Below are positions 1-324 of a stretch of DNA of 16,314 nucleotides, one piece after another. The notes beneath the pieces are model-generated. The model ran no database searches. It was not told the DNA's origin and was given only the letters and a program-made list of their open reading frames with translations. Position 1 is the stretch's first letter. Every line of letters starts with the position of its first letter. Origin of the DNA: a virus (lineage: Duplodnaviria; Heunggongvirae; Uroviricota; Caudoviricetes); the IMG/VR virus record IMGVR_UViG_2547132273_000004, positions 1 to 16,314 of that record; one strand, given 5' to 3'. The translations under genes and the position numbers were made by a program.

Positions 1-324
1 GCCGCGTTCTGTCCAGAGGATGAGGGAGCGGGCTTTCGGGGAAATTTGTAACCCTCTTAAAGATGGTTGCAAATTTTGTGAGTTACTTAAAGTAACCCGC
101 AAATTTTGTGAGTAGTTTAAAGCTACCCGCAATTCTTTAAGGTCATTACCAACAACTTTGAAAAAGTGTTTCCCTTCAACGAAGCGTACTTTGTTCTCAT
201 GATGATTCTGGCGAATACGCACCGGCTCAGTGCCGTAAAGCTGCGCCAAAAGTTCGGTGGTAATAACAGGAATCTGGTTATGGGTGATCGGGGAGAGAGT
301 TTCAACAGAAATTTGAGTTGTCAT
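1..324 (-). CDS. ORF6N-type antirepressor-like DNA-binding protein (partial; runs off the window start)
   Basis: Minus-strand ATG at 324..322 with a purine-rich stretch upstream; frame stays open to position 1, so it is absent from the ORF track. Translation MTTQISVETLSPITHNQIPVITTELLAQLYGTEPVRIRQNHHENKVRFVEGKHFFKVVGNDLKEL...SLILWTERG fits the remembered ORF6N/antirepressor N-domain pattern (TTxxLAxxYGT ... NKxRFxEGKHYF ... LxLWTExG). Confidence 0.5.
   Translation of the reverse strand, partial: MTTQISVETLSPITHNQIPVITTELLAQLYGTEPVRIRQNHHENKVRFVEGKHFFKVVGNDLKELRVALNYSQNLRVTLSNSQNLQPSLRGLQISPKARSLILWTERG

Follow-up and report, generated by a model that had tools for sequence, protein, structure and literature searches.

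Most genes encoding the ORF6N domain in Proteobacteria and Firmicutes phages carry, at one position within the domain, a 25–35-bp dyad-symmetric 'hairpin cassette', and the present analysis establishes this cassette as a family-wide feature at the nucleotide level. The window (the whole stretch of DNA analysed, 16,314 bp) contains three such cassettes in tandem inside an antirepressor gene, and related alleles contain different numbers of them. The cassette array, its copy-number variation and the family-wide dyad in the DNA are secure descriptive findings. An earlier note on this DNA under-called their scale, since the cassette is a feature of the ORF6N gene family and not a local duplication oddity. 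As for its origin, we lean tentatively towards a hairpin-prone palindrome at the DNA level, housed in a permissive protein loop, whose arms could be homogenised by template switching and whose copy number could change by slippage.

The gene and its cassette array

The window covers, in reverse orientation, the early region of a Stx-type lambdoid prophage. Its left end cuts an ant gene, of which the 5′ part (108 codons; 1..324, minus strand; ATG at 324..322) encodes the ORF6N domain. Over its first 700 bases, which take in this gene fragment, the window has 99.3% DNA identity to VT2-Sakai (AP000363.1, 17415-18149), where the corresponding gene is annotated 'ant' and encodes 244 aa with ORF6N and P22_AR_C. 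Pfam placed ORF6N (PF10543) at residues 12-115 (E=7.4e-19; 68.3 bits vs. a cut-off of 27.8) and P22_AR_C at residues 145-216 (E=1e-23), and PHROG 377 'anti-repressor Ant' was matched with E=1.7e-86; by these matches, the gene encodes an Ant/AnrP-type antirepressor. The ORF6N match extends over 104 residues for 84 profile positions, indicating that the repeat is extra material within the domain. Identity with HK022 roi was considered and rejected, the roi of VT2-Sakai being the next gene, with Rha and KilAC domains.

Upstream of ant, a small ORF of 57 aa (321..494, minus strand) matches Gifsy-1 orf45, and its TGA overlaps the ant ATG (ATGA, 324..321). A C4-type antisense RNA (377..460, minus strand; Rfam RF01695, 66.7 bits, above the gathering score) and the isrK sRNA (486..562, minus strand; Rfam RF01394, 74.7 bits) were also found. 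The isrK sRNA and a translationally coupled small ORF upstream of ant are the components of an AnrP-type module, and the isrK-orf45-anrP operon of Gifsy-1 has the same architecture as the one here (PMC4825925), in a study that makes no mention of palindromes or cassettes. The locus is the isrK-orf45-anrP module of Gifsy-1, here in the nin region of a Stx-type prophage. Further along, ORFs at 4030-4734 (+) and 3683-3916 (-) are read as cI-like and cro-like from position and length, and an O gene with iterons at 2791-2868, followed by P and ninB, is likewise read from ORF position and length; the homologous VT2-Sakai stretch contains a P gene and a nin146 (ninB)-like ORF. The lambda-type origin iterons (TCCCTC...GGGA, period ~20, 3.8 copies) lie inside the O-like gene at 2277-3215 (-). 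Rfam also detected a lambda cIII thermoregulator element at 8175-8233 (+; 88.5 bits), and short tandem repeats with periods of 16 and 21 (~1.9 copies each) occur at 5769-5798 and 5802-5841, at the junction of the ORFs 5155-5811 and 5808-6212.

Within ant, Tandem Repeats Finder (TRF) detected an array of period 30 (69-132; 2.1 copies, 85% matches). The earlier note had described two tandem 30-bp units with five differences that largely preserve dyad symmetry, in frame inside an ORF6N coding region, and this description was confirmed. Direct comparison of 71-100 with 101-130 gave exactly five mismatches (84-86 and 93-94 against 114-116 and 123-124), all confined to the inner dyad arms, among them two full compensatory swaps (T-A to A-T at unit pair (14,24) and A-T to G-C at (15,23)) and one change from C-G to T·G at (16,22); the units lie within the Pfam PF10543 match. 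By chance, ~3e-4 tandem matches of 25/30 would be expected in the entire window, with all periods up to 500 included. A third, degenerate unit occupies 41-70, with 17/30 identity to the other two and a dyad in which 13 of the 15 pairs are Watson-Crick and one is G·T, giving three dyads at 30-bp spacing.

Read on the minus strand, cassette A (101..130) encodes LRVALNYSQN, with its dyad centre at 119 and inner arms GTAGC/(A)CTAC on the coding strand; cassette B (71..100) encodes LRVTLSNSQN, with its centre at 89 and the coding-strand sequence GGGTTACTT-T-AAGTAACTC; and the degenerate cassette C (41..70) encodes LQPSLRGLQI, its palindrome covering 42-76 around a centre at 59. The array is thus VNTR-like, with at least two head-to-tail copies of a unit that is a multiple of three, and its translation is a protein repeat, LRVALNYSQN / LRVTLSNSQN / LQPSLRGLQI. 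All three cassettes have the outer arms TTTGC...(G/A)CAAA in common, while their inner arms differ, each being self-complementary. The spacer between units is also dyad-symmetric, and a 14-nt direct repeat, GCAAATTTTGTGAG, itself nearly palindromic, marks the cassette junction at 68..81, with a second copy read from the sequence at 98..111. Gapless palindromes scoring at least 8 occur in the whole window only at 42-76 and 70-108.

In an AlphaFold2 model built on a 113-sequence alignment, the ORF6N domain has pLDDT >90 except at residues ~71-95 (pLDDT 51-56), which are modelled as a coil between helix 59-74 and strand 100-104 and correspond to the cassette array. The cassette site is predicted to encode a loop, variable and disordered, that joins helix 3 to strand 4, and the low-confidence coil, together with linker lengths that range from 33 to 64 aa across the family, suggests that the loop is permissive. 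A sequence search of the PDB returned no relatives, and Foldseek against the PDB returned only non-significant matches, which were Ski/Dachshund-like.

Copy number and distribution among ORF6N genes

Linker forms surveyed among the 120 closest protein clusters showed that copy number is polymorphic, linkers of 38-40, 46, 56 and 66 aa carrying one, two, three and four cassettes, respectively. The one-cassette form reads ...LRVALNYSQNPISPKARS, the two-cassette form has VALNYSQN or VTLSNSQN followed by LQPSLRGLQ, the three-cassette form is the window's own allele, and the four-cassette form has VALNY, VTLSN, VTLSN and PSLRG (P0004; L084-L086). E. coli alleles that are otherwise 85-95% identical differ in the number and identity of their cassettes, and each cassette of the window recurs singly, with identical DNA, in other alleles. 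Cassette A stands alone in one- and two-cassette alleles, and cassette B is the sole first cassette in 'KILRVTLSNSQN' alleles (L138) and is present twice in the four-cassette alleles L084-L086. Since each cassette exists alone elsewhere, the three-cassette allele would most simply have arisen by unequal exchange or slippage at the junction repeat; it looks like the product of unequal recombination between two two-copy alleles, with a VALNY-type allele having gained the VTLSN cassette of another. In the four-cassette alleles (L084-L086 from IMG/VR, and P0004), the VTLSN unit is perfectly duplicated over 30 bp, which points to recent slippage. Independent expansions have placed two different tandem dyads in each of the loci L026, L042, L006 and L011, and distant representatives show multi-unit protein repeats suggestive of at least three cassettes.

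The wider survey covered 160 homologous loci (80 species genomes and 80 IMG/VR contigs), to which 80 loci of the TP901-1 ORF6 type and 10 phage records were added. At least one dyad scoring at least 7 was present in 70% of the 105 non-redundant linkers of the Proteobacterial set and in 80% of the 50 linkers of the Firmicutes-type set, and 20-30% of genes had no clear dyad (~150 non-redundant ORF6N genes). In a positional profile of 154 non-redundant loci, dyad centres scoring at least 8 were found only 10-100 nt upstream of the LWTERG anchor, where consecutive 30-nt bins were occupied in 10%, 30% and 25% of loci, vs. at most 3% in the other bins within ±400 nt. Dyad density was 4.8 per kb in the linker vs. 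0.15 per kb outside it, and within ±400 nt the remaining variable segments of these genes were not palindromic.

The stem sequences are unrelated between lineages, as seen in ccggtgtgaccctcttaaagagggtcacaccgg of Roseospira (L079, a perfect 33-mer), ccgagcagagggtcttaaagaccctctgctcgg of L046, aatttgcgactgacttaaagtcagtcgcaaatt of Acinetobacter (L065), cacagagtgactaatagtcactctgtg of Chromatium (L060) and aacgaggtcgaaaatttcgacctcgtt of L210; L046 and L065, like L079, have perfect 33-bp palindromes. ORF6 of Lactococcus phage TP901-1, the founding ORF6N member (AF304433.1; L162), carries acaacatccaaaatttggatgtagt at 543-567, at the homologous site (NNIQNLDVV, before ...LYLWTEKG). The ant gene of the P1-like phage RCS47, a plasmid prophage, has an ORF6N domain in its interior that carries the same cassette, tttgcgagtgactttaagtaactcacaaa (L169, 541-569). 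Furthermore, the first dyad of the Acinetobacter chengduensis locus L016, tttgtgagtagtttaaaactactaaca, is a near reverse complement of the window's cassette A, which suggests that inversion of entire cassettes or arms, or copying between arms, is possible.

Constraint on the nucleotides and its possible sources

The constraint is on nucleotides rather than on protein. When each peptide was rewritten with synonymous codons drawn from its own gene, the best dyad score of the Proteobacterial linkers averaged 8.5 as observed vs. 4.5 as recoded, and 68% of 103 linkers beat 95% of their synonymous recodings (56% at p ≤ 0.01). The Firmicutes-type linkers (n=48) scored 7.7 vs. 4.8, with 56% at p ≤ 0.05. 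The dyad is also read in different frames, its centres falling in codon phase 1 (75), phase 2 (8) or phase 0 (5); the central base is mostly the second of its codon, but the third in Acinetobacter and the first in Roseospira and Rhodospira. Thus tttgcgactgacttaaagtcagtcgcaaa encodes FATDLKSVAN in Acinetobacter L065, and near-identical DNA (tttgcgact.actt.aagt.agtc.caaa) encodes LRLTLSKSQN in the E. coli-type locus L133. Both TTTAA and TTAAA centres occur, the opposite-orientation TTAAA dyads being found only in phases 0 or 2 (L065, L046, L079, L064, L052 and L048; Acinetobacter, Roseospira). A TTAAA centre in phase 1 would read TAA, so that the reading frame and the orientation of the palindrome centre are coupled.

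The earlier note had proposed comparing copy number and covariation across homologues; copy number varies from one to four, as described above, and the stems covary. Among 64 distinct 29-nt units, picked by dyad score and thus subject to selection bias, 88.7% of cells were paired vs. 59.5% in shuffles (0/500) and 34-40% in slid controls, and 229 cells were double changes vs. 88 in the shuffles. The covariation score of these dyad-selected units was 0.69 vs. 0.215 (0/500 shuffles), indicating compensatory covariation, and arms paired at 86% with their own partners and at 53% when exchanged between units. Both synonymous-recoding tests and the positional profile are free of the dyad-selection bias. 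The units fall in a narrow size range, with arms of ~10-16 bp and an A/T-rich centre of 3-5 nt; central positions ±1 and ±2 are complementary in 72% and 88%, and in Proteobacteria the centre C-T-NNN-A-G is conserved at no less than 86-94%, including across reading frames. When alleles of equal linker length are compared, identity in the dyad region tracks that of its flanks; the region shows neither hypervariability, which was accordingly rejected, nor unusual conservation.

Structure predictions gave three stable hairpins in the window, at -27 kcal/mol for the sense RNA (z -4.2), -34.1 kcal/mol for the antisense RNA (z -5.7) and -14.5 kcal/mol for the DNA (z -3.2). Stem mismatches comprised 20 G·U on the sense strand, 24 A·C and 65 others (2, 5 and 18 in the Firmicutes set), without the G·U over A·C bias of a structured RNA on either strand. 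Rfam placed no family on the repeats, either with the whole window or with 1-420 at a permissive threshold, where only sub-threshold noise appeared at 34-163, and the complementarity of the repeat region to C4 or isrK was no better than that of control segments. A Rho-independent terminator was rejected, the stems here being A/T-rich and followed by no T-run in the window or its homologues. Half-sites recurred within ±1.2-1.5 kb in 0 instances vs. ~2 expected by chance (92 cases), and the cassettes show no similarity to the operator region of the phage itself (3916-4030). There was likewise no sign of a dispersed mobile element (RPE/REP/MITE-like), both palindromes scoring at least 8 lying within the array and none of matching sequence being found in the flanks of homologues. 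Given the lack of G·U bias, U-tract, Rfam match and half-site recurrence, the RNA-element, terminator and operator readings gain no support, and the results point to a constraint or process acting on DNA symmetrically, on both strands.

These results divide the earlier proposal that symmetry-preserving substitutions reflect selection on DNA or RNA structure, for example a protein-binding site or RNA hairpins. Constraint at the nucleotide level, rather than the protein level, stands on the recoding nulls, the covariation and the different reading frames. Selection does not follow, because homogenisation by template switching predicts the identical pattern without function (PMC5941160, PMC8604942), and covariation alone is no proof of a selected structure. 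Of the two examples, RNA hairpins went unsupported by the mismatch types, and the protein-binding site drew no positive evidence from half-sites that do not recur nearby, phage operators that look different and inner arms that differ within the gene.

The explanation we tentatively prefer is that the symmetry is due mainly to quasipalindrome correction: at the hairpin, template switching, either inside one strand or from strand to strand, would rewrite one arm after its partner, so that the sequence drifts and the palindrome persists. Symmetry would then be held at the DNA level with no cis function required for its upkeep, and the protein could tolerate the changes since the loop would accept almost any stop-free peptide. 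Under such arm homogenisation one expects covariation, frame independence, mismatches of random type and spacers in either orientation, and the arms were indeed found to change together, with random mismatch types and with spacers in both orientations. The 10-14-bp repeats at the junctions (coding strand: CAAAATTTGC) could allow copy number to change, either by slipped-strand mispairing or by unequal recombination, with the 14-nt junction repeat (68-81, 98-111) as the likely site. Template switching in Proteobacteria preferentially corrects imperfect inverted repeats to perfect ones (PMC5941160), and arm homogenisation with spacer inversion yields multi-nucleotide, non-synonymous changes and clustered amino-acid replacements without selection (PMC8604942); by our own estimate, the observed mismatch load of ~12% requires correction at only ~15x the per-site substitution rate. 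Nevertheless, persistence at one site in Lactococcus, Roseospira and E. coli despite total turnover of the stems demands much of a neutral process, only this variable segment within ±400 nt is palindromic, and the dyad region, whose rate of evolution is no higher than that of the coding DNA on either side, is not freely drifting. The conserved C-T-NNN-A-G centre hints at a sequence constraint, a conserved Leu codon being the alternative.

The same observations are the strength of a reading that we rank below template switching and regard as possible but somewhat less probable, namely a selected cis-acting structure, either a hairpin in the mRNA or in transient ssDNA or a cruciform extruded from supercoiled DNA, that acts on antirepressor expression. 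It could act by pausing, processing, mRNA stabilisation or autoregulation by ORF6N, a predicted DNA-binding domain, with tandem copies multiplying the signal. Most of the ~150 non-redundant genes, drawn from two phyla, have the dyad at the same position. It covaries strongly, keeps to a narrow size (arms ~10-16 bp, A/T-rich centre of 3-5 nt), conserves CT...AG at the loop base across three reading frames, is predicted to form three stable hairpins in the window, lies in a region that is not hypervariable and has no palindromic counterpart in other variable segments; antirepressor genes are, moreover, under multilayer RNA control, with isrK and C4 just upstream here. However, neither strand shows mismatches biased towards G·U over A·C, 20-30% of genes have no clear dyad, no Rfam family matches and no U-tract follows the stems, complementarity to C4 and isrK does not exceed controls, and the isrK/anrP study is silent on cassettes (PMC4825925). 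In its broadest form, for which our expectation is similarly low, ORF6N genes from Proteobacteria to Firmicutes phages might share an ancient, selected, frame-independent hairpin or cruciform as a previously undescribed cis signal. That signal would be an autoregulatory ORF6N target, or a processing or pausing signal limiting antirepressor synthesis, of which E. coli Stx-phage alleles would hold 1-4 copies. Rather unlikely, in our assessment, is that the palindrome is kept for the evolvability of the loop, with the gain and loss of cassettes and multi-nucleotide templated changes diversifying a surface loop that would set repressor recognition, through second-order selection in the manner of a contingency locus. 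The differing cassette number and identity of otherwise 85-95% identical E. coli alleles, the independent expansions (e.g., L026, L042, L006, L011) and the clustered amino-acid replacements documented for template switching (PMC8604942) fit this idea, but, at equal allele length, divergence of the dyad region does not exceed that of its flanks, and maintaining second-order selection is difficult.

Operators for a dimeric DNA-binding protein, whether the ORF6N protein or another phage regulator, with arms that co-evolve with its specificity, would account for symmetry that reaches the centre of many units (±1 72%, ±2 88% complementary), for the outer arms TTTGC...(G/A)CAAA common to the three cassettes of the gene and for a 30-bp spacing close to three helical turns. 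ORF6N is annotated as DNA-binding, its model weakly resembles the winged-helix-like Ski/Dachshund domain, at a level that is not significant, and Clerget and Boccard reportedly described in 1996 that HK022 Roi binds inside its own gene. We nonetheless consider operators improbable. The inner arms of the three cassettes differ, each self-complementary, which recognition by a single protein would not require; half-sites are found in 0 instances vs. ~2 expected within ±1.2-1.5 kb (92 cases), the phage operator region at 3916-4030 is unrelated, and many units have asymmetric, hairpin-loop-like centres of 3-5 nt. That the array is an ordinary in-frame protein repeat, with dyads as a by-product of the peptide or of chance, is the least credible of the readings and hardly worth entertaining: the units are exactly 10 codons long and an LR(V)xLxxSQN repeat is visible, but synonymous recodings rarely match the dyad scores (8.5 vs. 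4.5; 56% at p ≤ 0.01), one and the same DNA dyad, read in other frames, gives different peptides, and perfect 33-bp palindromes exist in L046, L065 and L079. The by-product reading was rejected, being contradicted by the recoding tests, the covariation and the positional profile.

Significance and comparison with known systems

Antirepressors set the timing of the prophage lytic switch, including that of Shiga-toxin phages. A conserved nucleotide element inside their genes would represent a new control point or else a clean natural example of a palindrome that has sustained itself over very long times and shaped a protein loop. For annotation, the ORF6N protein motif in the cassette segment may be partly a shadow of the DNA palindrome. 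Literature searches on ORF6N with palindromes, or antirepressors with inverted repeats, found no description of it. As far as these searches reach, the combination of a palindrome fixed at one position of a domain family across phyla with tandem expansion in E. coli phages is new; the processes invoked, template switching and slippage, are already known.

Palindromic elements of Rickettsia, placed in frame inside protein-coding genes, were reportedly described by Ogata et al. in 2000. They resemble the cassette as in-frame palindromic DNA within genes whose encoded peptide is tolerated at the protein surface, but they are mobile repeats of 100-150 bp spread over many unrelated genes, whereas the cassette is 25-35 bp and occupies one homologous site of one domain family. 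Integron attC sites conserve a palindromic organisation while their sequence varies, and in this they are alike, with a constraint that lies on the DNA; unlike the cassettes, they are non-coding, 57-141 bp long, have conserved extrahelical bases and flank gene cassettes beside an integrase. The iterons of the lambda origin in gene O are also repeated DNA within a gene, in a segment encoding a flexible, length-variable part of the protein, yet they are direct repeats of conserved sequence bound by the O protein, and the cassettes are dyads of variable sequence. Terminators and the lambdoid nut boxB are short stem-loops with A-rich loops in the lambdoid early and nin regions; the cassette differs from them in having no U-tract, boxA or Rfam match, in its location and in its occurrence in non-lambdoid phages and in phages of Gram-positive hosts.

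The isrK-orf45-anrP control of Gifsy-1 and the P1-type C4 control (PMC4825925; RF01394, RF01695) share with the window an AnrP/Ant homologue, isrK, a C4-like RNA and an ATGA-coupled ORF, but that control acts at the 5′ leader, while the cassettes lie ~190-290 nt into the coding region and have no complementarity to either RNA. A likeness in process is offered by quasipalindrome correction (PMC7202029, PMC5941160, PMC8604942), in which repeats stay or become perfect, both arms change, spacers invert and amino-acid changes cluster. Those studies concern single inverted repeats among close relatives, mostly of the same sequence; the hairpin cassette, for which we infer template switching, instead occupies one gene-family site across phyla, with turnover of its sequence and tandem expansion.
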